DNA of 64,000 nt. Origin: an uncultured Acidobacteriota bacterium. Lineage in GTDB: Bacteria > Actinomycetota > Acidimicrobiia > Spongiisociales > ZC4RG35. The translations under genes were made by a program, and so were the position numbers. Each line of letters opens with the position of its first letter. Position 1 is the stretch's first letter. The stretch spans positions 1 to 64,000 of the forward strand of contig CAWHEU010000024.1 in assembly GCA_963828465.1 (NCBI GenBank). Direction: 5' to 3'. Positions 9,493-36,436 of this stretch are shown one piece after another. The notes under the pieces are model-generated. The model saw only the letters and a program-made list of their open reading frames with translations, had not been told where the DNA came from and made no database searches.

Positions 9493-11537
9493 TACTTCGC
9501 CAGCTCCTGAGCCTTGAGGACGATGCCCTCAGGCGTGGGGTAGAGCTCGTTCTCCAATGGTCCGGCGTACGGCATGATGGGGACGTCGGGAAGGGCGTAC
9601 CGACGCACCGGCGCGTCGAGCCATTCGAAGGTCTTGTCTGCGATCTGGGCCGCGAGTTCTGCGCCATATCCCGCGAACTCGTTGTCTTCGTAGACGATCA
9701 GAGCACGTGACGTCTTCTTGACGGACTCTTCGATGGTGGGCCAGTCGAGTGGCTTGAGGCTGCGCAAATCGATCACCTCGGGGCTGATGTCCAACTCCTC
9801 GAGCAATGACGCCGCCTCGACGGCGAAATGGGCCATCGCCCCGTAGGCGATGATCGTCAGGTCCTCGCCCTGATGGCGGATGGCCGCCCGGCCCAGGGGA
9901 ACTCGATGCTCGCCTGCCGGATACGGGCCCTTGGCGAGGCGGTAGAGCTTCTTCGGCTCGAGGAACATGACCGGGTCTGGGTCCTCGACAGCCGTGAAGA
10001 GCAGCCCCTTCACGTCTGCGGGAGTCGAAGGCACCACCACCTTCAGCCCGGGCACGTGGGCATAGAAAGACTCGATGGACTGAGAGTGGTAGAGCGCGCC
10101 GTGGATCCCGGCGCCGTATGGGGTGCGGACGACCATCGGCACGTTCCATTTCCCGTCGGATCGGAACGAGATCCGCGCCGCCTCCGATACCAACTGGTCG
10201 AAGGCAGGGTGGATGTAGTCGGCGAACTGGATCTCAGGGATCACCTTGAATCCGCTGACGGCCATGCCGATGGCGGCGCCGATGATCGATGACTCGGCGA
10301 TCGGGGTGTTGAAGCATCGGTCGGCTCCGAAGCGATCGGTCAGGTCCTGAGTCGCCTTGAAGACTCCGCCCTTGCGCCGGGCCACGTCCTCACCGAACAC
10401 GATCGCGTCCTCGTGGGCCTCGAGCACTTCGTGTAGGGCCATGTTGATCGCCGTGATGAGATTCACGGTCTCGCCGCCGGAGGCAACCTCAGGTTCGGTG
10501 ACCGGGGGACCTGGCTCGATGACCTTGGCATACACGCGGCTGGTCGGCTCGTCGGGGTTCGGGGCGGCCTCGGCGTTTTCGACCGCCCGGGCCAGAGCCT
10601 CGATCACTTCGTCGTCGATCCGCAACTCTTCGGCCTCTGTCAGGAGGCGGTTCTCGATGAGGTACTGACGGACCCTGGCCACCGGGTCTCGTTTGCGCCA
10701 GGTCTCAACCTCCTCCCGACTGCGGTACAGGGTGTCGTTGTCGTCGGAGGTGTGGGCGTAGTAGCGATAAGTCTCGGCTTCGATCAGGGTGGGTCCCTCC
10801 CCGGCCCTGGCCCGGCGAACCGCCTCCTGCATCACCTTGTAAACCCGAAGTGTCCGGTTGCCATCGACCTCGACACCGGGAAACCCGTAACTCTCCGCTC
10901 TCGCGGCGAGGCTTCCGGCGACCTGTTCTTCCTGTGGCACCGAGATGGCGTATCGGTTGTTCTCGATCACGAAGATCAAGGGCAGTTTGCGGATCCCAGC
11001 CCAGTTCATCGCCTCGTGCCAGTCGCCCTCAGACGTCGAGCCCTCGCCCCCGTACACCGCCACCACGGAGTCGTCACCCCGGTTGGCCACAGCCTGGGCG
11101 ATGCCTACCGCATGGGGGTACTGAGTGCCGATCACCGAGGACTGGGTCAGGACTCGGCGTTCCCGACTGGACCAGTGGCCAGGGAGCTGGCGACCCCCGG
11201 ACATCGGGTCGGTCTTCTTGGCGAACGCACCGAGGAAGATCTCCTCCGGCTCGAAACCCCAGGCCAGCGCCACACCCATGTCGCGGTAGTAGGGCAGAAC
11301 CCAGTCCTTCTCTTGGTCCAGTGCCAGCGCCGAGGCCACCTGGACGGCCTCGTGGCCCGAGGACCCGACCACGAAAGGAGCGCGGCCCTGACGCTGAAGG
11401 GCGAAGAGACGGTCGTCGATTCGCCGCGTCGTGAGCATCAGCCGGTACATCTCCACGACCTGCTCGTCGCTCAAGCCCAATTCCCCGTGGTGGAGATTCC
11501 GGTCGAAGTCCATGCCGTAGGTGCGGTGGCTCGTCAA
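9489..11537 (-). CDS. 2-oxoacid dehydrogenase E1, fused alpha-beta subunits (probably branched-chain)
   Basis: GEGSTSEG..ENN TPP motif, HTSDD, GEDV..GGVFKAT and HSQS motifs; coupled to Leu/Val dehydrogenase. Confidence 0.92.
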   Translation of the reverse strand: MTSHRTYGMDFDRNLHHGELGLSDEQVVEMYRLMLTTRRIDDRLFALQRQGRAPFVVGSSGHEAVQVASALALDQEKDWVLPYYRDMGVALAWGFEPEEIFLGAFAKKTDPMSGGRQLPGHWSSRERRVLTQSSVIGTQYPHAVGIAQAVANRGDDSVVAVYGGEGSTSEGDWHEAMNWAGIRKLPLIFVIENNRYAISVPQEEQVAGSLAARAESYGFPGVEVDGNRTLRVYKVMQEAVRRARAGEGPTLIEAETYRYYAHTSDDNDTLYRSREEVETWRKRDPVARVRQYLIENRLLTEAEELRIDDEVIEALARAVENAEAAPNPDEPTSRVYAKVIEPGPPVTEPEVASGGETVNLITAINMALHEVLEAHEDAIVFGEDVARRKGGVFKATQDLTDRFGADRCFNTPIAESSIIGAAIGMAVSGFKVIPEIQFADYIHPAFDQLVSEAARISFRSDGKWNVPMVVRTPYGAGIHGALYHSQSIESFYAHVPGLKVVVPSTPADVKGLLFTAVEDPDPVMFLEPKKLYRLAKGPYPAGEHRVPLGRAAIRHQGEDLTIIAYGAMAHFAVEAASLLEELDISPEVIDLRSLKPLDWPTIEESVKKTSRALIVYEDNEFAGYGAELAAQIADKTFEWLDAPVRRYALPDVPIMPYAGPLENELYPTPEGIVLKAQELAKY

Positions 11538-26655: not shown

Positions 26656-27870
26656 TCACTGCCCGCCATCCGCTCGCCGAGCCGTGTGGAGCGAAACCGC
26701 GCCGGCCACGCCTTTCAGCTCGACAGGTCCGATCTCGTCGAACCTCAGCTGGGTTCCCGAAGCGGCGTCGACGACCTCCTGGCTCACCAGCACCTCCCCA
26801 GGCCGTGCGTAATCGGAGATCCTCGCCGCGACGTTCACGGTCCGGCCAAAGTAGTCACCCTCCTGGAAGACCACGGGTCCGGCGTGGATTCCGACGCGTG
26901 CGGGCGGAAGTTCATGGGCCACGGCAACCTCCACCATGTCGAAGGCGGCCAGGACGCTGTGGGTCGGGTCGGAGAAATAGAACATCACGCCATCGCCCAG
27001 CCACTTGACCGACTCGCCACCGTGCTCCAGCGCCGACCGCCGGACCAGTGCCCTCAGCTCTGCGGCCAGGTCTGCCGCCGCCGCATCCCCCTGCTCTTCG
27101 GTCAGCCTGGTGTATCCGGTGAGGTCGAGGAAGCTGACTGCCGGCGGGCCATGAAGCCGGCTGTGGAGGCCTGCTTTCTCCAGGGCGTCTTCGGTTCGCT
27201 CCACGGCACTCCTGGTCCACACCCGTTCTTGCTGTCCGTGGTAGATGGCGACTAGAGCCTGCTCGACGAGCGGCGCCATCCTCGATCCGAACTCGCCCTG
27301 AGCCTCCAACATCTCGGCCTCGACCATGCCCCCCTCGAGCAGCGGCGATACGACCTCGGAGCCGTACCAGTCGGTCTCGGTCTCGGCGATGCGGCGAAGA
27401 CTCTCCTCGTAGACCCTCAGCCACCTCTCTATGACCACCCGCCGGAAACCGCTGGAAAGCTGAAGCTCGACAGCGGCTACCACCGCCAGCTCTTCCTCGC
27501 GGACGTAGTCCTCTGGCCGCGGCTCCGGATGGCCAAACGCCTCCCGGACGACAGCAAGGAGTTCGAGCGGAATGCCCCGCGTATTGCTCAGCTCCTCGAA
27601 GGTGGTGTTGCTGAGCCCGGCGAACCGATCGAACGCACTTTCGTCCAGAAAGGAGAAGGAGAGGGTCCCGTCACGGACTGCCTCGGCCATGTCCTCGAGG
27701 GGCACGCCGGCACGTTCGAAATTGTGAATCCAACGCGCCCTGCGTACGTCACCCGACGAGAAAGCGTCATCGACCAGGGGTGCCAACATCCCGAGCTCGA
27801 CCAATTGGTCGACATAGGAGGAAGCAACCCCGGCCTGATGGGCCACCTCATGGCGCGAATGCCCGGTCAC
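26656..27870 (-). CDS. Class III adenylate cyclase with N-terminal regulatory region
   Basis: FLDLTGYT, KWLGDG and DYFGRTVNVAAR give the full catalytic set. Confidence 0.9.
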   Translation of the reverse strand: MTGHSRHEVAHQAGVASSYVDQLVELGMLAPLVDDAFSSGDVRRARWIHNFERAGVPLEDMAEAVRDGTLSFSFLDESAFDRFAGLSNTTFEELSNTRGIPLELLAVVREAFGHPEPRPEDYVREEELAVVAAVELQLSSGFRRVVIERWLRVYEESLRRIAETETDWYGSEVVSPLLEGGMVEAEMLEAQGEFGSRMAPLVEQALVAIYHGQQERVWTRSAVERTEDALEKAGLHSRLHGPPAVSFLDLTGYTRLTEEQGDAAAADLAAELRALVRRSALEHGGESVKWLGDGVMFYFSDPTHSVLAAFDMVEVAVAHELPPARVGIHAGPVVFQEGDYFGRTVNVAARISDYARPGEVLVSQEVVDAASGTQLRFDEIGPVELKGVAGAVSLHTARRADGGQ

Positions 27871-27910
27871 GAGTCGGACCGTAACTGGAGTGGTTCGGCG
27901 ATGGGATCGA

Positions 27911-29050
27911 CTAGGTCAGCGAGGCCGCATAGAGCTCCCATTGGCCGGGAACTCCACGGAGGCTCACCGACCCCAGGGGAGCGAAACCGAGATCGGTTCC
28001 GGTGGCGAGATCGAGCACGGTTCGAGTCACCACGACCTGATTCGCCGATGCCGATCCCAGGGCTCGGGCCGCGATGTGAATCGCGATGCCGCCGACGTCG
28101 GCGTCGCGTACTTCGATCTCACCGGTGTGGATGGCCGCCCTCATCTCGAGTCCCATTCGAGCCAGGGCGTCGCGGAGATCGAAGGCACAGCGCAGCGCCC
28201 TGGTTGGCGCATCGAAGGTAGCCAGCACCCCGTCGCCTGTGGACTTGACGAACCTGCCCATCCAACGGTCGACTTCGGAGCGTGCCACCTCGTCGTGACG
28301 GTCGATGAGCCGTCGCCAGGCGCGGTCGCCGAGTTCCGCCGCCCGCCCGGTGGAGTCGACCAGGTCCGTGAACATCACCGAGGCCAGAATCCGATCCACG
28401 TCCTGTGCGGCTTGCAGGGAGCGCACCTGTTCCTGGGTCCAGGCGAAATCCGCCACGTATCGGCTGGTGGGCTCCTCCCGTTGCGGTTGATAGGTCAGGA
28501 GAACGACTCCAGAGCTGAAGGTGCGGGTAGCGACGAGTTGCAGATAGCGGGTGTCGATTCCGTCGCGGAACATGTGCTTCCCAGAGCCCAGGATCGTGGG
28601 GTAGATGAGAAGCCGGTATTCATCGACGAGGTCATGCTCGAGCAAAAGGTCCACGAGGTCTGCGCTGCCGTAGACGACCAGGTCACCACCCGCCTGTTTC
28701 TTGAGATCGATCACGTGGCTGACGACATCGCCGTTGATCAGTGTCGAATTGCTCCAGTCCGCTCTCGTCAGAGTGTTGGAAACCACATATTTGGGGATGC
28801 CGTTGACCCGCTCGGCAAGCTCCTCATCACCGGTGGCTGTTGGCCAAAAGGCGGCCCAGATCTGATATGTCTTCCGACCCAGTAGGTAGGCGTCAGCGGT
28901 GAAGGCCTGGTTCCGGTTGTATTCCTCGTCGTCTTCATTCTGAACCCGCAGCGCCCAGGCGTTTCTGCCATCGCGGTGCTCATCGAAGCCGGGGGCTTCG
29001 ATCACACCGTCCAGGGTGACGAACGCGGTGACGACAAGCTTCACAGTCAC
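27911..29050 (-). CDS. RibD_C/DHFR-like domain fused to a class III cyclase domain
   Basis: N-term TLDG, LGRKTY, PKYVVS and GSADL; C-term FTDLVDST, KSTGDG and HIAAR, all in one frame. Confidence 0.85.
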   Translation of the reverse strand: MTVKLVVTAFVTLDGVIEAPGFDEHRDGRNAWALRVQNEDDEEYNRNQAFTADAYLLGRKTYQIWAAFWPTATGDEELAERVNGIPKYVVSNTLTRADWSNSTLINGDVVSHVIDLKKQAGGDLVVYGSADLVDLLLEHDLVDEYRLLIYPTILGSGKHMFRDGIDTRYLQLVATRTFSSGVVLLTYQPQREEPTSRYVADFAWTQEQVRSLQAAQDVDRILASVMFTDLVDSTGRAAELGDRAWRRLIDRHDEVARSEVDRWMGRFVKSTGDGVLATFDAPTRALRCAFDLRDALARMGLEMRAAIHTGEIEVRDADVGGIAIHIAARALGSASANQVVVTRTVLDLATGTDLGFAPLGSVSLRGVPGQWELYAASLT

Positions 29051-29144
29051 GCATTCTGCCCCGGCGGCCGTCCTGAGGCGGGTCGGGCACGGCCGGCACC
29101 CTCGCTCTAGTGAGCGAGGGAAAGGCGGTTTAGAATCACGGTGG

Positions 29145-29768
29145 GTGAACGTGGGAAGCAGATCTTCTGGACTGGGGGCCAAGCGCGTCTTCGATGCGGT
29201 TTTGACCCTGCTGACCGCACCTGTATGGGTGCCGGTTCTGTTGGTCATCGCGCTCCTGGTCCGTCTGTTGCAAGGTCCGCCGGTCTTCTTTCGTCAAACC
29301 CGCCCCGGCTATCGGGGCAGACCGTTCCGACTGGTCAAATTCCGCAGCATGTCGGACAAACGGGATGCCGACGGCGATCTACGCCCTGACAGCGAGCGCA
29401 TCTCATCGATCGGAAAGTTTCTCCGTCAGACGAGCCTCGACGAGCTCCCCGAGTTGTTCAACGTTCTCCGGGGGGAGATGAGCCTGGTCGGCCCGCGGCC
29501 CTTGCTGATGGAGTACCTCGATCGTTACACGCCGGAGCAAATGAGACGACATGACGTGCCTCCCGGCGTGACCGGATGGGCACAGGTCAATGGGCGCAAC
29601 GCCTTGACATGGGATGAGAAGTTCGAGCTGGACACCTGGTACGTGGACAACCGCTCGATCAGCCTCGACCTCCGCATTCTGGGCCGGACGATCGGGCAGG
29701 TGTTGGCCAGGGAAGGGATCAGCGCCGAAGGCCACGCCACCATGCCCAAATTCGGGGAGGAAGCGTGA
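29145..29768 (+). CDS. Small phosphoglycosyl transferase (bacterial sugar transferase, PglC-like)
   Basis: KRVFD, KFRSM, SLDELPEL.NVLRGEMSLVGPRP and PGVTGWAQVNGRN motifs. Confidence 0.93.
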   Translation: MNVGSRSSGLGAKRVFDAVLTLLTAPVWVPVLLVIALLVRLLQGPPVFFRQTRPGYRGRPFRLVKFRSMSDKRDADGDLRPDSERISSIGKFLRQTSLDELPELFNVLRGEMSLVGPRPLLMEYLDRYTPEQMRRHDVPPGVTGWAQVNGRNALTWDEKFELDTWYVDNRSISLDLRILGRTIGQVLAREGISAEGHATMPKFGEEA

Positions 29769-30669
29769 GTGACGCCGCCGCCCGATACCGGGCCATGCTC
29801 CGGATTCGCCGATTCGAGGAGACGATCCTCGACAAGTTCCCCACCGGTGTGTTTCACGGCACCACTCACACCTACATCGGCCAGGAGGCCAACGCGGTTG
29901 GGATCCTCGACCACATCAGGGAGGGCGATTCGGTGTTCTCCAACCACCGCTGCCACGGGCATTTCCTTGCGTACGGCGGCGACATGCGCGGCCTCTTCGC
30001 TGAGCTGATGGGGAAGGCCACGGGAATCTGTGGAGGCCGTGGCGGCTCCCAACACATCCACTGGCGCCGCTTCTACTCAAACGGCGTACTCGGCTCCGCC
30101 ATCCCGGTGGCTACCGGAATGGGGCTGGCAGGCCGGTTTCGAGGTGACGACGACATCGTCGTGGTCTTCATGGGAGACGGTGCCATGGGCGAAGGTGTGA
30201 TCTACGAGGCCTTGAACATGGCGGCCCTGTGGCGGGCGCCGGTGTTGTACGTGGTGGAGAACAACCGGATCGCACAGACCACGCCGATCGAGTTGGCCAT
30301 GGCCGGAAGCATTCCCGGCCGTTTCGAGGGCTTCGGCGTACCTGCGCTCGCCATCGCCTCGTCCGACGTCGACGAGATCTCGTTGGCCGCATCGAAGGCG
30401 ATCGCAGAGGTCCGGGACGGCGGTACTCCTCAGGCACTGGTCATCGACACCAACCGTTTCGCTCCTCATTCCAAGGGCGACGACACGAGGCCCCAGGAGG
30501 CGATCGAAGCGCTGTGGGCGACTTCCGACCCGATTGAGATCCACGCGTTCCCGGCTCGATCCGCAATCAGCGTGAGGAACTTGTCGCCGAGGTGGCCGAG
30601 GAAGTGTCCCAAGCATTCGCTGTCGCCCTCGCCGATCCGGAGCCCGACGTCGAAGTGGGGGCGGCATGA
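29765..30669 (+). CDS. TPP-dependent dehydrogenase E1 alpha subunit (frameshifted near 30550-30567)
   Basis: GQEA, NHRCHGH, GGRGGSQH, GDGA..ENN and HSKGD motifs; C-terminus QREELVAE..GAA* lies in another frame. Confidence 0.85.
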
Positions 30670-31694
30670 GCACCGTCCTCGAGTCGCTCAACGCCGGCCT
30701 CCATGGCGCCATGGAGGCCGAAGAGAATGTGTACATCCTCGGCGAAGACGTCCTCGACCCATATGGGGGCGCCTTCAAGGTGACTCGGGGCCTGTCGACG
30801 GCATACCCGGACCGTGTCATAACCACCGCCGGTATCCGAGGCCGGTTTTGTCGGCGTCGCCACCGGGCTCGCCCTCAGTGGCCTTCGCCCGGTGGTGGAG
30901 ATCATGTTCGGCGACTTTGTCACCCTTATCACGGACCAGGTGATCAACGGCCTGTCCAAATACGGATGGATGTACGGGGGGGCGCTCGAAATACCTCTAG
31001 TGATCCGCACACCGATGGGTGGCCGCCGCGGCTACGGGCCTACTCACAGCCAAACCCTGGAGAAGCTGTTCCTCGGCGTTCCCGGGCTTGCGGGTGCTGG
31101 CACCTTCCGCTTTCACGGATCCGGGCGGGCTGCTGCGGGCGGCGATCGACGATCCCGGACCGGTCTTGTTCGTGGAGAACAAGCTCCAATACCAGAGGCG
31201 GCTCGATGACCCCGCCTTCTCTGCTCTCGAGACACGGGTGCAGGCCCAGGAGGGCTACGCCACGGCAGCCACAGTGAGTGTCGCGGGCGCACCGCGACCC
31301 CAGTTGACCATCGCGGCCTACGGCGACATGGCGGAGAGGGCGGCCGAGGCCCAGCTGAAGATGGCCTACGAGCTCGAGATCTTCTCAGAGTTGGTCGCCT
31401 TGGAACAGCTGGACCCGCTGGGTCCCAGCGGGGATCTCCCACGCGCTCTCGCCGACTCGCTTCGGCAGACCGGGTGTTTGCTCACCGTGGAGGAGGGCAC
31501 GCACACTCATGGGTGGGGTGCCGAAGTAGTGGCGAGGGCCGTGGAGACCTCACCGCAGAAGCTCGTCGATCGCCCGGGTAGCTGCGTTCGACAGCCCGGT
31601 GCCGGCCTCCCGGGTGCTGGAGGCGTCCGTCCTGCCCGACGTCGACGTCATAGTCGGCGCCGCTCAGAAACTCGTTGCCGCACTCGATGGCTGA
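30666..31694 (+). CDS. TPP-dependent dehydrogenase E1 beta subunit (three frameshifts)
   Basis: GEDV.DPYGGAFKVT, P.SEAGF, EIMFGDF, GPTHSQ, FVENK and VEEG..GWGAE motifs spread over frames; shifts near 30828, 31089 and 31568. Confidence 0.8.
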
Positions 31695-32763
31695 TCCGGT
31701 CGTCGTCGAGGTCCCGCTCGTCAATCCCAACGAGCCGGACGCTCTCGTCGTCGACGTTGCGTTGCCCGAAGGTGGCCATGTCTCGGCTGGGGATGTCCTT
31801 TGCTCGCTCGAGACCTCGAAGTCGGTCGAGGACGTCTACGCCGAAGTGTCGGGATACGTCTTTGGACTGGCTGCCAAGTTGGGCTCGACGGTGACAGCCG
31901 GCAACGTGCTGTGCTACCTGTCTGAGGACCCGCAATGGACTCCGCCGGTCGACGACGAGGGAGATCAGGGTGACGATGTCCCCGAGGACCTGCGGATCAC
32001 GGAGCCGGCATTGGCGGTCGCCAGGGAGCTCGGGCTCGACCTGAGCACGCTGCCGGTTGGGGTCCTGATCACCGAGCGTCACGTTCGTGAAGCGTCCGAT
32101 GTTGGCCGGGTGGAAGCGCCACCTGCCGATCCCTCCTCGGTGATCGTCTTCGGCGCCGGTGGCCACGGCAAGACGCTGATCGAGCTCATCCGGGAGGCCG
32201 GGCAACTGGAGCTAGTTGGCGTCGTCGACGACCGTTCGGCCAGAGGCTCGGACATTCTGGGCATCCCGGTGCTGGGCAATCGCGACGATCTGGCCTCGAT
32301 ACGGCGTGATGGCATCGGACTGGCAGCGAACGCGATCGGCGGCATCTCCAACATGGCGTCGCGTGTCGAGGTGTCTCAAGCACTCGCCGCCCGTGGGTTT
32401 GTCCTTCCAGCGCTCGTCCACCCCACGGCCTTCGTCGAGGCCAGCGCCTCGATCGGCGAGGGCGCCCAGATCCTGGCTCACTCCTACGTCGGTTCGGATG
32501 CAGTGGTGGGCAAAGGGGTGATCGTCAACACCGGTGCGGTGGTGTCACACGATTGTGTTCTCGAGGACCACGTCAACCTCTCCCCGGGTTGTCTTCTCGC
32601 CGGGGGGATCACCGTGGGTGAGGCCACGTTGCTGGGTATGGGGGTCACGACATATCTGGGGATCAGCATCGGTGACAACGTCCGGGTTGGGAACGGCGCG
32701 ATCATCACTGCCCCGGTGCCGGATGGCCGGAGGATCGCGACCGGCTCTGTTTGGGAGGGCTAG
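31687..32763 (+). CDS. Lipoyl domain + subunit-binding domain + PglD/NeuD-type hexapeptide acyltransferase fusion
   Basis: LETSKS..V.AEVSG (lipoyl Lys), PALAVARELGLDL..ITERHV (PSBD), FGAGGHGK, NTGAVVSHDC and hexapeptide repeats in one intact ORF. Confidence 0.85.
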   Translation: MADPVVVEVPLVNPNEPDALVVDVALPEGGHVSAGDVLCSLETSKSVEDVYAEVSGYVFGLAAKLGSTVTAGNVLCYLSEDPQWTPPVDDEGDQGDDVPEDLRITEPALAVARELGLDLSTLPVGVLITERHVREASDVGRVEAPPADPSSVIVFGAGGHGKTLIELIREAGQLELVGVVDDRSARGSDILGIPVLGNRDDLASIRRDGIGLAANAIGGISNMASRVEVSQALAARGFVLPALVHPTAFVEASASIGEGAQILAHSYVGSDAVVGKGVIVNTGAVVSHDCVLEDHVNLSPGCLLAGGITVGEATLLGMGVTTYLGISIGDNVRVGNGAIITAPVPDGRRIATGSVWEG

Positions 32764-32795
32764 AACAACTGGCACCCGCGACAATCGGGCCGGTC

Positions 32796-33194
32796 ATGAG
32801 TTATGAGCTGCGCCCGGTCGGGCACGTCGAGTCCGATCTCACCGATCCCGCCATCGCGCCCAAACAGGGTGTAGAAGGAGGTCCGGAGGCCTGGCTCGTC
32901 TTCGAAGGAGAGTACGAGCCGGCGATGCGGGAGCTGACAGTAGGGGAGCGGATCCATGTGATCACGTGGTTGCATCTCGCCGACCGTTCCGTTCTGCGGG
33001 TACATCCCCGGGACGACGAGAGCCAACCCATGCGCGGTGTGTTCGACACGAGGTCGCAGGACCGGCCCAATCCCCTCGGCCTGCACACCGTGACCGTCCT
33101 CGCCGTCGAGGAGAACAGGGTGCTGGTCAGCGACCTCGAGGCGGTCGACGGGACACTTGTGATCGACGTGAAGCCCGTGCTTCGGACCGACTGA
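32796..33194 (+). CDS. tsaA: tRNA m6t6A37 methyltransferase TrmO/TsaA family
   Basis: GVFDTRSQDRPNPLG and DGTLVIDVKP motifs. Confidence 0.85.
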   Translation: MSYELRPVGHVESDLTDPAIAPKQGVEGGPEAWLVFEGEYEPAMRELTVGERIHVITWLHLADRSVLRVHPRDDESQPMRGVFDTRSQDRPNPLGLHTVTVLAVEENRVLVSDLEAVDGTLVIDVKPVLRTD

Positions 33195-34409: not shown

Positions 34410-34847
34410 TCAGGTCTGAGGGCGAACCGTTGGCTCTTGCGATTGGTCAAGCATCGCGGCCCAAGACATGTGAAGTTGCCGCAGATGAGCCGGCGGAATG
34501 GAGTCAGAGGTGAGCAGAGCCAGCAGTTCGTCGTCGATCCCAAGCCGCACGAGTCGAGCCACATCCTGCCAATTCTTCAGCTCGACGGGGTCGCCCTGGT
34601 CACCCATCTCAACCATTTCGAGCAAATGCTCCGGCACAAAGGCGGATCCGATCCGCTGCCAGGCCAAGGCGTACATATCTGCGCGGACAGGGAGCATCTC
34701 AGAGGCCGCTCGCCAGGCGCCGGCATGGAAGGACTCCTCGATCGTCCCCCGTGCCGCGGCCAGCCGGAGTCGGTCGTCATCCGTCAGCGCCCTGGCCCGC
34801 TCGACCAGGGCGTCGATCATCTTCTGAGTCTGGTCTCGGTCGGTCAC
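34410..34847 (-). CDS. Hypothetical protein
   Basis: Only protein-like ORF in the interval; start uncertain. Confidence 0.55.
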   Translation of the reverse strand: MTDRDQTQKMIDALVERARALTDDDRLRLAAARGTIEESFHAGAWRAASEMLPVRADMYALAWQRIGSAFVPEHLLEMVEMGDQGDPVELKNWQDVARLVRLGIDDELLALLTSDSIPPAHLRQLHMSWAAMLDQSQEPTVRPQT

Positions 34848-34939
34848 TCGCGCCTTCGAACGTTTGCTTACGCGCCCTAGACGATGCGTCAGGCGGACGT
34901 GTAGGTTATCTCTCCTCTGCAAACGGAGAAGGAGGACAC

Positions 34940-36436
34940 ATGGCCGCCATCAGCCGTCGCGACTTCTTGCAGAAGGGTGCCGCCGCAGTTGTAGCCACTC
35001 TCGGTTCCACCATTGGGCCGTTCGCTGGGTTATCCGCTCGGGCTGCAACTGCAGGGCCCAAGTTCGCGGCAGAGAACGGAGGGTATGGACCGCTGATTCC
35101 GCTCCGCGACCTGCGGGATGGGGTGGAGCGGTTGTTCCTCCCGGAGGGTTTCAAGTATCGGTCATTCGGGGTTCGGAACACCTCGCTGACCGAAGAGTCG
35201 ACGTTGACTCCTGGTCGTCATGACGGGATGGCCGTGTTCTCCTGGAAGCAAGGGAAGGTTCGGATCGTCCGGAATCACGAGCAGACCCAGCCGAATCCGG
35301 TTGGCGTGTTCGGGAACGTCAGCCTCGCCTACGATCCTGCGGCTCCTGGGGGTACCACCACACTGGAGATCTCCCCGACCGCCGACGAGGTCAGCAGCTG
35401 GGTGAGCCTCAACGGCACGACTTTCAACTGTGCGGGTGGCGCCAGCCCGTGGGGGACCTGGCTGACCTGCGAGGAGACGCCGAATGGGATGGATCAGCAA
35501 CGCAGCTTCCTGGTCCTGCCCGGCCAACCGGACGATCTCACCTACACCCAGAAACACGGCTACTTGTTCGAAGTCCCTGTTTCGCGGGGACCCGGTGAGC
35601 TGGAGGTCGCCGAGCCGATCCGCTCTGCTGGGCGCTTCGCGGATGAGGCTGCCGCCGTCGACCCGACCACGGGCGATGTGTACATGACAGAAGACGACTT
35701 CGCATATGCATCTGGTTTCTATCGCTACCGGCCGCCCAACCGGCCGAAGCAGGACAAGCGGATAGCCGACGGAGGTGTCCTGGAAATATTGGGCGTGATC
35801 CCGCCCGGCGCCTCAGAACCGGTGACCATGGATCTTCACGCCGACCAGGCTCCAGGGGCCACCCATCAGGTGGGCTGGATCCGCATCGAGAATCCCGACC
35901 CGGCCTTTGCTCCTGGCCTGAGCAATGACGAAGCGGCACGCGTCGTCTTCCAGGAAGGAGAGTCCAACGGGGCGGCTCGATTCTCCCGGTTGGAGGGGAT
36001 GGACTACTTCAACGGGAAGATCTTCTTCGTCTCTACCGAGGGAGGCGGGCCTTTCGATTCGGACCCGCCTCCGAACGGAAGCGCCGGCTTTGGTGGCGGG
36101 TATGGCCAGGTCTGGATGTACGACATTTCCCAGGAGACACTGACGCTGGTGTTCGAGTCACCGGGGCCGGATGTGCTCGATTTCCCCGACAACATCATCA
36201 TTTCGCCGCGTCGTAAGAGTGTGATCCTCTGTGAGGACAGTTCCGGGGGCAACATGCTCCGGGCGCTGACGAGAGACGGGCTCATATTCGACTTCGCCTT
36301 GAACAATGTCGCAAGCGGGGTCGACGAGTTCTCCGGTGCCACCTTTGGACCCGGGGGCAAGGTGCTCTACGCCAACATGCAGGCCAACGGAATCACCTAC
36401 GCCATCTGGGGGCCCTGGAGCAACGGTCTGATCTAG
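34940..36436 (+). CDS. phoX: PhoX/DUF839 family alkaline phosphatase, Tat-exported
   Basis: SRRDFL Tat motif; HDGM, RNHE, NCAGG..PWGTWLTCEE, PDN and CED motifs. Confidence 0.85.
   Translation: MAAISRRDFLQKGAAAVVATLGSTIGPFAGLSARAATAGPKFAAENGGYGPLIPLRDLRDGVERLFLPEGFKYRSFGVRNTSLTEESTLTPGRHDGMAVFSWKQGKVRIVRNHEQTQPNPVGVFGNVSLAYDPAAPGGTTTLEISPTADEVSSWVSLNGTTFNCAGGASPWGTWLTCEETPNGMDQQRSFLVLPGQPDDLTYTQKHGYLFEVPVSRGPGELEVAEPIRSAGRFADEAAAVDPTTGDVYMTEDDFAYASGFYRYRPPNRPKQDKRIADGGVLEILGVIPPGASEPVTMDLHADQAPGATHQVGWIRIENPDPAFAPGLSNDEAARVVFQEGESNGAARFSRLEGMDYFNGKIFFVSTEGGGPFDSDPPPNGSAGFGGGYGQVWMYDISQETLTLVFESPGPDVLDFPDNIIISPRRKSVILCEDSSGGNMLRALTRDGLIFDFALNNVASGVDEFSGATFGPGGKVLYANMQANGITYAIWGPWSNGLI

Follow-up and report, generated by a model that had tools for sequence, protein, structure and literature searches.

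A lipoyl-PglD fusion protein encoded with pyruvate dehydrogenase-type E1 subunits: a plausible CoA-free route to sugar N-acylation in uncultured bacteria

Introduction

To which acceptor would a lipoyl arm deliver its acyl group if the catalytic core of the acyltransferase component (E2) of a 2-oxoacid dehydrogenase were replaced by a sugar N-acyltransferase? This question is raised by a four-gene operon at positions 29145-32763 (+) of the window, i.e. the 64,000-nucleotide stretch of contig C24 (CAWHEU010000024.1) analysed here, which belongs to the genome assembly of an uncultured bacterium of the class Acidimicrobiia (GCA_963828465.1; 3.07 Mb, 29 contigs, ~64% G+C). The operon encodes a PglC-like phosphoglycosyl transferase, the alpha and beta subunits of a thiamine diphosphate (ThDP)-dependent E1 component, and a fusion protein consisting of a lipoyl domain, a segment resembling a peripheral subunit-binding domain (PSBD), and a PglD/NeuD-type acyltransferase. 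In textbook accounts, sugar N-acylation proceeds by acyl-coenzyme A (CoA), acyl-acyl carrier protein (ACP), or ATP-grasp chemistry, and the endpoints of lipoyl arms are CoA, the glycine cleavage system and, in rare cases, an ACP. Full-text searches of a literature library (supplementary files excluded) yielded neither a publication linking a lipoyl domain to a sugar N-acyltransferase nor a characterized example.

The answer that we favour, with a probability of roughly 0.7, is that the lipoyl arm receives an acyl group from E1 and that the PglD domain passes this group to a nucleotide-linked 4-amino sugar without CoA. The domain composition, gene linkage, and distribution of the family on which this proposal is based are described below, together with the alternatives.

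Results and discussion

Domain composition of the fusion protein

Pfam searches and the translations agree with the four overlapping genes described in the initial annotation, which also reported correctly that the E2 catalytic domain is absent: no operon protein matched 2-oxoacid_dh (PF00198, the CAT-like E2 core), for which the ordinary E2 of a congener, included as a positive control, gave 3e-52. The gene junctions read from the sequence are GTGA (PglC-like/E1 alpha), ATGA (E1 alpha/E1 beta), and a 20-nt overlap (E1 beta/fusion). Coordinates and domain matches are listed in Table 1.

The translation of the fusion gene contains the motifs LETSK (K49), GAGGHG, and NTGAVVSHDC (H292). Neither K49 nor H292 varies in any of 37 diverse members with identities down to 27%, and both are also retained in all 17 sequences of a smaller alignment; the nucleotide-binding PglD_N domain and the GGHGK motif are likewise conserved among the relatives. 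The orthologue in the congener G021 passes TIGR03570 (NeuD/PglB/VioB) with a score of 161.6 against a cut-off of 160.8. The closest relatives in the PDB, namely the acetyltransferase domain of Neisseria gonorrhoeae PglB (4m98, 6e-32), PerB (9e-29), VioB (2e-19), and Campylobacter jejuni PglD (6e-17), are all N-acetyltransferases of 4-amino-4,6-dideoxy sugars, and H292 corresponds to the VDHDC His of 4m98 and PerB (PerB entry 4eaa has Asn at this position). A Ser in place of Glu before the catalytic His had been pointed out in the initial annotation. The VSHDC motif is present as described; its use as a mark of CoA independence was rejected, and it is no signature of the fusion, because relatives of stand-alone length also read VSHDC.

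An AlphaFold2 model of the fusion (mean pLDDT, 76) shows a lipoyl domain at residues 8-83 (pLDDT 87-91), a low-confidence acidic, Pro-rich linker, a helix-loop-helix at residues 110-143 (helices 110-118 and 134-143), a short second linker, and the PglD N-domain at residues 152-240 (pLDDT above 90), followed by the beta-helix, which scores lower as a monomer. The helix pair lies in the segment for which a PSBD motif had been claimed. Residues 9-157 are colinear with the lipoyl and PSBD part of the congener's ordinary E2 (BLASTP, 3e-7), whose E3_binding domain at 102-137 coincides with the ARELGLDL...ITERHV stretch of the fusion; because of this colinearity, the N-terminal half can be regarded as an E2 front end with an exchanged catalytic core. 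Helix pair, colinearity, and the complex prediction described next support the PSBD assignment indirectly; the Pfam E3_binding profile, which gave no match to the segment even at E<=10, does not.

Docking of the PSBD-like segment on the C-terminal domain of E1 beta is predicted. Complexes of two E1 beta chains with fusion residues 98-150 gave ipSAE interface scores of 0.62, 0.61, and 0.62 in three runs, compared with 0.26 for the best control; the runs share at least 95% of their contacts, with a partner pLDDT of at least 79. The predicted contacts involve residues 186, 205-209, and 233-237 of E1 beta and residues 107, 109-112, and 129-134 of the fusion. The prediction passes the calibration mark for this score, which 58 of 80 solved complexes and 2 of 110 mismatched pairs attained in a setup that differs from the present one; here, our own alignments were supplied (17 rows for the fusion and 25 rows for E1 beta, the latter chosen by hand among the 72 loci that had an E1 beta match). 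A PSBD-E1 complex of comparable kind has already been solved, and the favourable score may therefore reflect likeness to that complex rather than binding.

Conservation of the E1 subunits

The closest solved relatives of the E1 proteins are human pyruvate dehydrogenase (PDH) E1 alpha (7.5e-45) and E1 beta (3.9e-45), and both proteins score well under the NCBIfam PDH cut-offs (234 vs 394 for alpha and 203 vs 321 for beta). The ThDP motif (GDG...NN) and the His of PHSKGD in the alpha subunit, as well as E58 and H127 in the beta subunit, are conserved across 61 alpha and 69 beta members, and the latter two are invariant in the 25 aligned relatives; these residues presumably serve cofactor activation and reductive acylation. 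In addition, E1 alpha has four clade-invariant residues, T33, H61, H66, and Q171, at positions where the human protein has F, Y, F, and M, respectively. Some of these positions line the E1 active site, and the clade-specific polar residues hint at a donor more polar than pyruvate. An attempt to name the 2-oxo acid from the E1 residues yielded no substrate call.

The two subunits appear as a single open reading frame (ORF) of about 645-665 amino acids (aa) in ten loci (L026, L028, L061, L084, L096, L120, L121, L123, L130, and L131), and the L120 product contains E1_dh, Transket_pyr, and Transketolase_C domains by Pfam. In some long-read assemblies, such a merged ORF could be the result of a lost stop codon. 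Besides the operon E1, the source genome has four other, more typical E1_dh paralogues. A second, more typical E1_dh gene (279 bits; 694-aa open frame) is located at 10554-11447 (-) of the window and may be an E1 alpha-beta fusion.

Table 1. Positions of the operon genes, of the domains of the fusion protein, of the frame-disrupting insertions, and of related loci with ligase and dehydrogenase genes
Feature	Position	Strand	Evidence or remark
PglC-type small monotopic phosphoglycosyl transferase, 207 aa	29145-29768	+	Pfam Bac_transf, E 8e-63
E1 alpha, ThDP-binding subunit, 300 aa in relatives	29765-30669	+	E1_dh, E 8e-51
E1 beta, 341 aa in relatives	30666-31694	+	Transketolase_C match on middle frame
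Fusion protein, 362 aa	31675-32763	+	Biotin_lipoyl 7e-10, PglD_N 3e-11, Hexapep 1.5e-13
Lipoyl domain of fusion, residues 1-85	31675-31929	+	Biotin_lipoyl, E 7e-10; putative lipoyl-lysine K49 (LETSK), codon 31819-31821
PSBD-like helix-loop-helix, residues ~104-143, RITEPALAVARELGLDL...ITERHVREA	31984-32103	+	Predicted dock for E1 beta C-terminal domain
PglD/NeuD-type N-acyltransferase, residues 152-362	32128-32763	+	GAGGHGK N-domain and left-handed beta-helix; His292 (VSHDC), codon 32548-32550
Five single-base insertions breaking both E1 genes	30547-31568	+	Comparison with three relatives; short-read contigs
Loci with lipoate ligase and E3	L119:84-3512; L120:2725-8108; L121:4037-10619; L122:1291-6630		

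Gene neighbourhood of the fusion

The surroundings of the fusion gene were compared in 160 loci, i.e. the best 80 loci of 539 stretches from species genomes (genome set) and 80 more distant loci (metagenome set). In the genome set, the E1 beta gene is located directly upstream of the fusion gene in 71 of the 72 loci with at least 1.1 kb of upstream sequence (the exception being L038), and E1 alpha is present in 61 of 64 (missing in L038, L041, and L055). In the metagenome set, E1 beta adjoins the fusion gene in 54 of 58 loci and E1 alpha is adjacent in 40 of 45. These linkage counts indicate that E1 alpha, E1 beta, and the lipoyl-PSBD-PglD protein form the constant core of the system.

Genes for glycan synthesis are a frequent addition to this core in the genome set: a PglC-like gene is found within 8 kb upstream in 40 of 57 loci, and a DegT aminotransferase gene directly downstream in 40 of 75 and anywhere in the locus in 51 of 80. 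The best NCBIfam matches of this DegT protein are PseC (291 bits) and LegC (288 bits), both under cut-off, which are C4 aminotransferases of 2-acetamido-2,6-dideoxy-hex-4-uloses. Overall, the neighbours of the operon's relatives are glycan or housekeeping genes.

In four of the 160 loci (L119-L122), which are the four closest relatives of a cluster present on 172 contigs, genes for an LplA-type lipoate-protein ligase and the dihydrolipoyl dehydrogenase component (E3) stand immediately beside the fusion gene; an adjacent ligase or E3 gene was found in none of the other 156. In L121, the ligase matches LplA-B_cat (1e-56) together with the ligase C-terminal domain, and the E3 matches Pyr_redox_2 (2e-59) together with Pyr_redox_dim. 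The gene order in L120 is DegT ... E1 alpha-beta, LplA, fusion, E3, methyltransferase, CBS-nucleotidyltransferase, and two radical-SAM/SPASM genes, and that in L121 is glycosyltransferase, DegT, two methyltransferases, E1 alpha-beta, fusion, LplA, methyltransferase, and E3. One of the methyltransferases of L121 is TylF-like. The presence of a dedicated ligase and E3 in a sugar-modification cluster is understandable only when the arm is lipoylated and redox-cycling, which is what these loci suggest for the fusion.

The initial annotation had noted no E3, sugar aminotransferase, or dehydratase gene in the window, and whole-genome searches located none on contig C24 (Pyr_redox_dim, DegT, and Polysacc_synt_2, respectively). 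On other contigs of the source genome, there are two genes for E3-like proteins, one for a LipB-like protein, three for DegT aminotransferases, and one for a PglF-like dehydratase; with the dehydratase and DegT genes encoded there, the sugar pathway can be complete in this genome. All five of the fusion-bearing Chloroflexota genomes tested contain E3 and ordinary E2s.

Three further neighbouring genes were considered as candidate components and rejected. The 1207-aa ORF upstream of the fusion gene in L136, taken into account as a possible large E1, encodes an SMC protein. Extra genes considered as E3 candidates encode what, on visual inspection of the translations, looks like a membrane protein containing beta-propeller-type repeats (L030, between the E1 beta and fusion genes) and a tetratricopeptide repeat histidine kinase (L033, between both E1 genes).

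Distribution of the family

The fusion is not unique to this assembly, a possibility that the initial annotation had left standing. A word-indexed search yielded 907 proteins at E<=1e-3, and nearly all of the top 120 combine PF00364, PF17836, and PF00132; these are annotated only as NeuD/PglB/VioB or EpsM acetyltransferases. In a library of 1.84 billion representatives (clusters at 50% identity), 506 proteins were found at E<=1e-30. Among the best 150 of these, 105 give a single match that extends from the lipoyl domain to the C-terminus and were counted as full-length; in 20 others, with lengths of 319 aa or more, the match is divided into two or more stretches, and the remaining 25 are shorter. 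Relatives of the fusion are encoded by 539 of 599 candidate stretches in species genomes; the best 80 are all full-length and originate mostly from Anaerolineales or other Chloroflexota, with six from the window's own lineage. None of 16 genomes from the other genera of the order encodes a full-length fusion.

The family is present in hundreds of mostly uncultured species of Chloroflexota and some Acidimicrobiia. Pseudomonadota, Planctomycetota, and other Actinomycetota possibly carry it as well, according to the Atlas listing, in which similar clusters with lipoyl and hexapeptide domains are found, most commonly in Pseudomonadota, Planctomycetota, and Actinomycetota; these entries serve as leads only. 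A full cassette (PglC-like, E1, E1, fusion, and DegT) also occurs in L036, a locus from a metagenome-assembled genome titled Methanosarcinales archaeon, on a contig with a coverage of 0.43 in its name. Misbinning seems likely in this case because the locus closely resembles those of Anaerolineales.

Proposed mechanism

We propose that the operon encodes a small 2-oxoacid-dehydrogenase-like machine in which a sugar N-acyltransferase takes the place of the E2 catalytic core. The E1 alpha/beta heterotetramer, with ThDP, would decarboxylate a 2-oxo acid or cleave a related donor and would reductively acylate the lipoyl group on K49, while the fusion protein is held on E1 beta by its PSBD-like segment. 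The flexible arm would then bring the thioester-bound acyl group to the active site in the trimeric PglD-type domain of the same protein, where His292 would activate the 4-amino group of a nucleotide-linked 4-amino-4,6-dideoxy-N-acetylhexosamine (a precursor of the bacillosamine or legionaminic acid type), and the acyl group would move from S to N without CoA. The reduced arm would be re-oxidized by E3, i.e. by the host's own enzyme here and by a dedicated one in some relatives, and a surface glycan would be initiated by the PglC-like enzyme, which would transfer the finished sugar phosphate to polyprenyl phosphate. In solved homologues, the PglD-type active site lies between the subunits of a trimer, and E2 cores are also built of trimers; since both are trimer-based, the exchange of the core would keep the geometry. 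The direct transfer from lipoyl thioester to amino sugar, which had already been put forward in the initial annotation, appears supported by the gene context, including the four loci with ligase and E3.

With regard to the acyl group, acetyl from pyruvate would be the first assumption, PDH E1 being the closest relative of solved structure. A non-acetyl group of higher polarity may be transferred instead, and an argument for it, albeit a weak one, is that such an elaborate E1/E3 route is found in organisms that already have acetyl-CoA. N-Glycolyl, named in the initial annotation, is a guess. The most far-reaching version of the proposal, i.e. a widespread class of 2-oxoacid:amino-sugar N-acyltransferases that use a CoA-free lipoyl donor and install a non-acetyl, probably polar acyl group (glycolyl or another hydroxyacyl) by means of an E1 with a polar site, is offered only tentatively; we regard it as rather doubtful at present.

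Several observations weigh against the proposed transfer, in addition to the blank E3_binding search mentioned above. Lipoylation of K49, the acyl donor, the direction of transfer, the independence from CoA, and the acceptor are all points that we infer. The association with glycan genes is loose in the metagenome set, in which only 6 of 52 loci have DegT next to the fusion gene and 10 of 33 have a PglC-like gene upstream of it, and no aminotransferase or dehydratase gene adjoins the operon in the window's own genus. The fusion gene has no adjacent E1 gene in five loci (L038, L136, L153, L187, and L196), E1 beta has no adjacent E1 alpha in three (L041, L055, and L186), and in L191 the sole E1 beta match is located ~2.3 kb upstream at the contig edge, with no E1 alpha. 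A search for E3 and lipoate ligase genes within 10 kb, with the E3 and LipB of the source genome as queries, gave a match in none of the 80 genome loci. The fusion is also patchily distributed, being present in full length in only 5 of 25 genomes of the window's genus (including the unpublished G018, which is without it). For L136, L153, L187, and L196, tblastn searches detected no E1 nearby; in the first two (L136:2311-8558 and L153:2110-8545), the fusion gene lies between an SMC gene and a long gene with a ThyX domain, and because no E1 is encoded nearby, these organisms may have their E1 elsewhere or the fusion may work differently in them.

Alternative roles of the PglD-type domain

A first alternative is that the PglD domain uses acyl-CoA and that the lipoyl-PSBD part only tethers or regulates it on E1 or on a PDH complex, e.g. 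near a source of acetyl groups. All of the nearest solved relatives of this domain depend on acetyl-CoA, its sequence shows no recognizable sign that CoA binding has been lost, and proteins of stand-alone length that share the VSHDC motif are 44-50% identical to the PglD half; because this half is so close to CoA-using enzymes, the sequence is compatible with acyl-CoA as donor, which is a further point against CoA-free transfer. However, dedicated E1 alpha/beta subunits without an E2 catalytic domain would leave the acylated arm nowhere to unload, K49 would have no evident reason to be invariant in all of the diverse members compared, and the dedicated LplA and E3 of some loci are sensible only if the arm turns over. 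We therefore regard a mere tethering function as unlikely.

According to a second alternative, the beta-helix is a substitute E2 core that transfers the lipoyl-bound acyl group to CoA or, nucleotide sugars excepted, to some other thiol or amine, as part of an unusual keto-acid dehydrogenase or of non-glycan tailoring. Five loci without glycan genes near the fusion, among them those located between an SMC gene and thyX (L136 and L153), and the frequent lack of adjacent DegT and PglC-like genes in the distant set are in line with this idea; it is nevertheless improbable, given the conservation of the PglD_N domain and GGHGK, the TIGR03570 score above cut-off, the nearest structures, which all act on 4-amino-4,6-dideoxy sugars, the C4 aminotransferase and PglC-like genes flanking the fusion in most Chloroflexota loci, and the position of L120 and L121 within sugar-modification clusters. 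Transfer from the lipoyl arm to an amino sugar thus remains the reading that we prefer, at the probability given above.

Frameshifts in the E1 genes

The frameshifts that had been noted in both E1 genes are present in the assembly. Compared with three relatives (G012, G021, and G017; 91-94% DNA identity to the window), the window contains private +1 insertions at ~30547 and ~30563 in E1 alpha and at ~30826, ~31088, and ~31567/8 in E1 beta, and zero insertions in the PglC-like and fusion genes. In tblastn alignments, E1 alpha is read in three frames (segments 1-261 and 268-298 in different frames and a short stretch between them), and segments 1-54, 55-141, 139-299, and 300-341 of E1 beta are in frames 1, 2, 3, and 1, respectively. 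An intact homologous operon exists in G021, with products of 207, 300, 341, and 362 aa.

These breaks are very probably assembly errors. Logan contigs from four public soil runs of one study (X1-X4) were placed on 29800-32700, with gaps in coverage (e.g. 32128-32321 in three runs) and an Illumina adapter in a loose end, and every contig that covers any of the five sites omits exactly one base there; no short-read contig backs the frameshifts. One of these contigs, 210 bases in length, differs from the window at just one further position. Indel errors also seem to extend beyond the operon and to be assembly-wide, as suggested by the fact that two of the three DegT genes of the source assembly are split between two frames (G000:C29:89683-90737 (-) and G000:C22:265668-266742 (+)). 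Private frameshifts likewise occur in other few-contig assemblies, namely in E1 beta of G012 (L011 ~8752, G012:C10) and in the fusion gene of the assembly behind L023 (10001-11090; split at ~residue 270), and the operon is intact in the many-contig assemblies G021 and G017 and in the record behind L021.

The contrary view, that the operon is a decaying pseudogene cluster in the source genome, with real frameshifts and an acylated sugar that is no longer made, draws on the clustering of the five insertions within 1.02 kb, all outside homopolymer runs and with both flanking genes unaffected, which is odd for random error and is a point against our explanation, and on the patchy presence of the operon in the genus, as expected of a dispensable accessory trait. 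It has little probability in view of the base missing from every covering short-read contig, including the 210-base one, the frame-split DegT genes elsewhere in the assembly, the private E1 beta frameshift of G012, and the E1 segments, which are 96-100% identical to the intact G021 proteins (84% for the E1 alpha tail, 268-298), i.e. no less than the neighbouring genes are.

The PglC-like protein and the flanking genes

The GTG at 29145 is the same start as that of the 207-aa G021 protein, with 97% identity over residues 1-207. Bac_transf spans residues 56-230 of the long ORF, and NCBIfam TIGR03025 covers only the C-terminal 180 residues of the protein, which has one N-terminal hydrophobic helix and the motifs LDELPE and GPRP.

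The genes flanking the operon on both sides are unrelated to it. Upstream, a pair of genes on the opposite strand (26656-29248 (-)) encodes a 404-aa adenylate cyclase (Ad_Cy_reg and Guanylate_cyc) and a 445-aa protein. The latter has an N-terminal RibD_C domain as its sole Pfam match, and its C-terminus, by eye, is class III cyclase-like, with no Pfam match at E<=0.001. Downstream, a TrmO-like gene (32751-33194 (+), 1.8e-21) begins 13 nt ahead of the fusion stop and is followed by one minus-strand gene without assignment and by a gene for a PhoX alkaline phosphatase (34751-36436 (+)). In the relative G017, 13 bases are missing at the fusion/TrmO junction.

Comparison with known systems

As proposed, the system works like PDH and branched-chain 2-oxoacid dehydrogenase (BCKDH) complexes, e.g. 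the human and Geobacillus PDH, up to the acyl-lipoyl stage, and like PglD thereafter. With those complexes it shares a ThDP-dependent E1 alpha/beta with conserved catalytic residues, a single lipoyl domain followed by a linker and a PSBD-like segment, colinear with a congener's true E2, the predicted docking of that segment on the C-terminal domain of E1 beta, and E3 and lipoylation enzymes, which are encoded in trans or alongside (L119-L122). It differs in that the PF00198 core is missing and a PglD-type left-handed beta-helix transferase is found instead, in that the presumed acceptor is an amino sugar rather than CoA, and in an E1 that falls under the NCBIfam PDH cut-offs and carries T33, H61, H66, and Q171 in the alpha subunit.

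With PglD, NeuD, PglB, VioB, and PerB, the fusion protein shares the nucleotide-binding N-domain and beta-helix, the aligned catalytic His, a TIGR03570 score above cut-off, and the company of a C4 aminotransferase and a PglC-like enzyme, as in bacillosamine pathways. Unlike those enzymes, it has an added lipoyl domain and PSBD-like segment and is tied genetically to E1 alpha/beta, and its donor would be its own lipoyl thioester instead of acetyl-CoA. Neisseria PglB consists of fused PglC-like and PglD-like domains, and in the PglB2 variant the 4-N-acyl group is changeable by swapping the acylating module. The coupling of a phosphoglycosyl transferase to a 4-amino acylating enzyme is common to both systems, and 4m98 is the best PDB match of the fusion; here, however, the two activities are encoded by separate genes, and the swapped module is E1-lipoyl, not ATP-grasp.

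The QncN/L/M and SclQ1-4 systems of natural-product pathways, in which a lipoyl domain is used to load a glycolyl unit, are the closest precedent for a lipoyl arm in the service of biosynthesis, in that an E1-like ThDP enzyme and a lipoyl domain supply an acyl unit outside central metabolism. PMC6335953 describes SclQ2 (305 aa) and SclQ3 (338 aa) as split E1-like proteins, of sizes near those of the operon's E1 subunits, and states that both systems keep an E2-type acyltransferase domain and pass the acyl group to an ACP for non-ribosomal peptide synthesis. The present operon, by contrast, encodes a sugar N-acyltransferase and is accompanied by glycan genes, a distinction drawn from the published descriptions. 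The E2-type acyltransferase (PF00198) is absent from the operon, and no ACP was noted among the neighbours, where no search aimed at ACP was made.

Implications

Taken together, the gene content and conservation described above identify the operon as a widespread, unstudied variant of the 2-oxoacid dehydrogenase design, for which CoA-free acylation of sugars is a plausible mechanism. For annotators, this is a reason against labelling the genes separately as 'pyruvate dehydrogenase' and 'acetyltransferase'. The idea is testable directly with four or five soluble proteins. The system is also a candidate source for N-acyl groups lacking a known origin, e.g. that of a possible N-glycolyl legionaminic acid, which is discussed in PMC5378307 for an organism to which no link has been shown here. 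If the proposal is true, 2-oxoacid dehydrogenase chemistry would gain a new outlet, namely a glycan acyltransferase supplied by a lipoyl arm, and surface glycans could be diversified in a new way; if the acyl group is non-acetyl as well, the system would also account for unusual N-acyl groups on bacillosamine- or legionaminic-type sugars.

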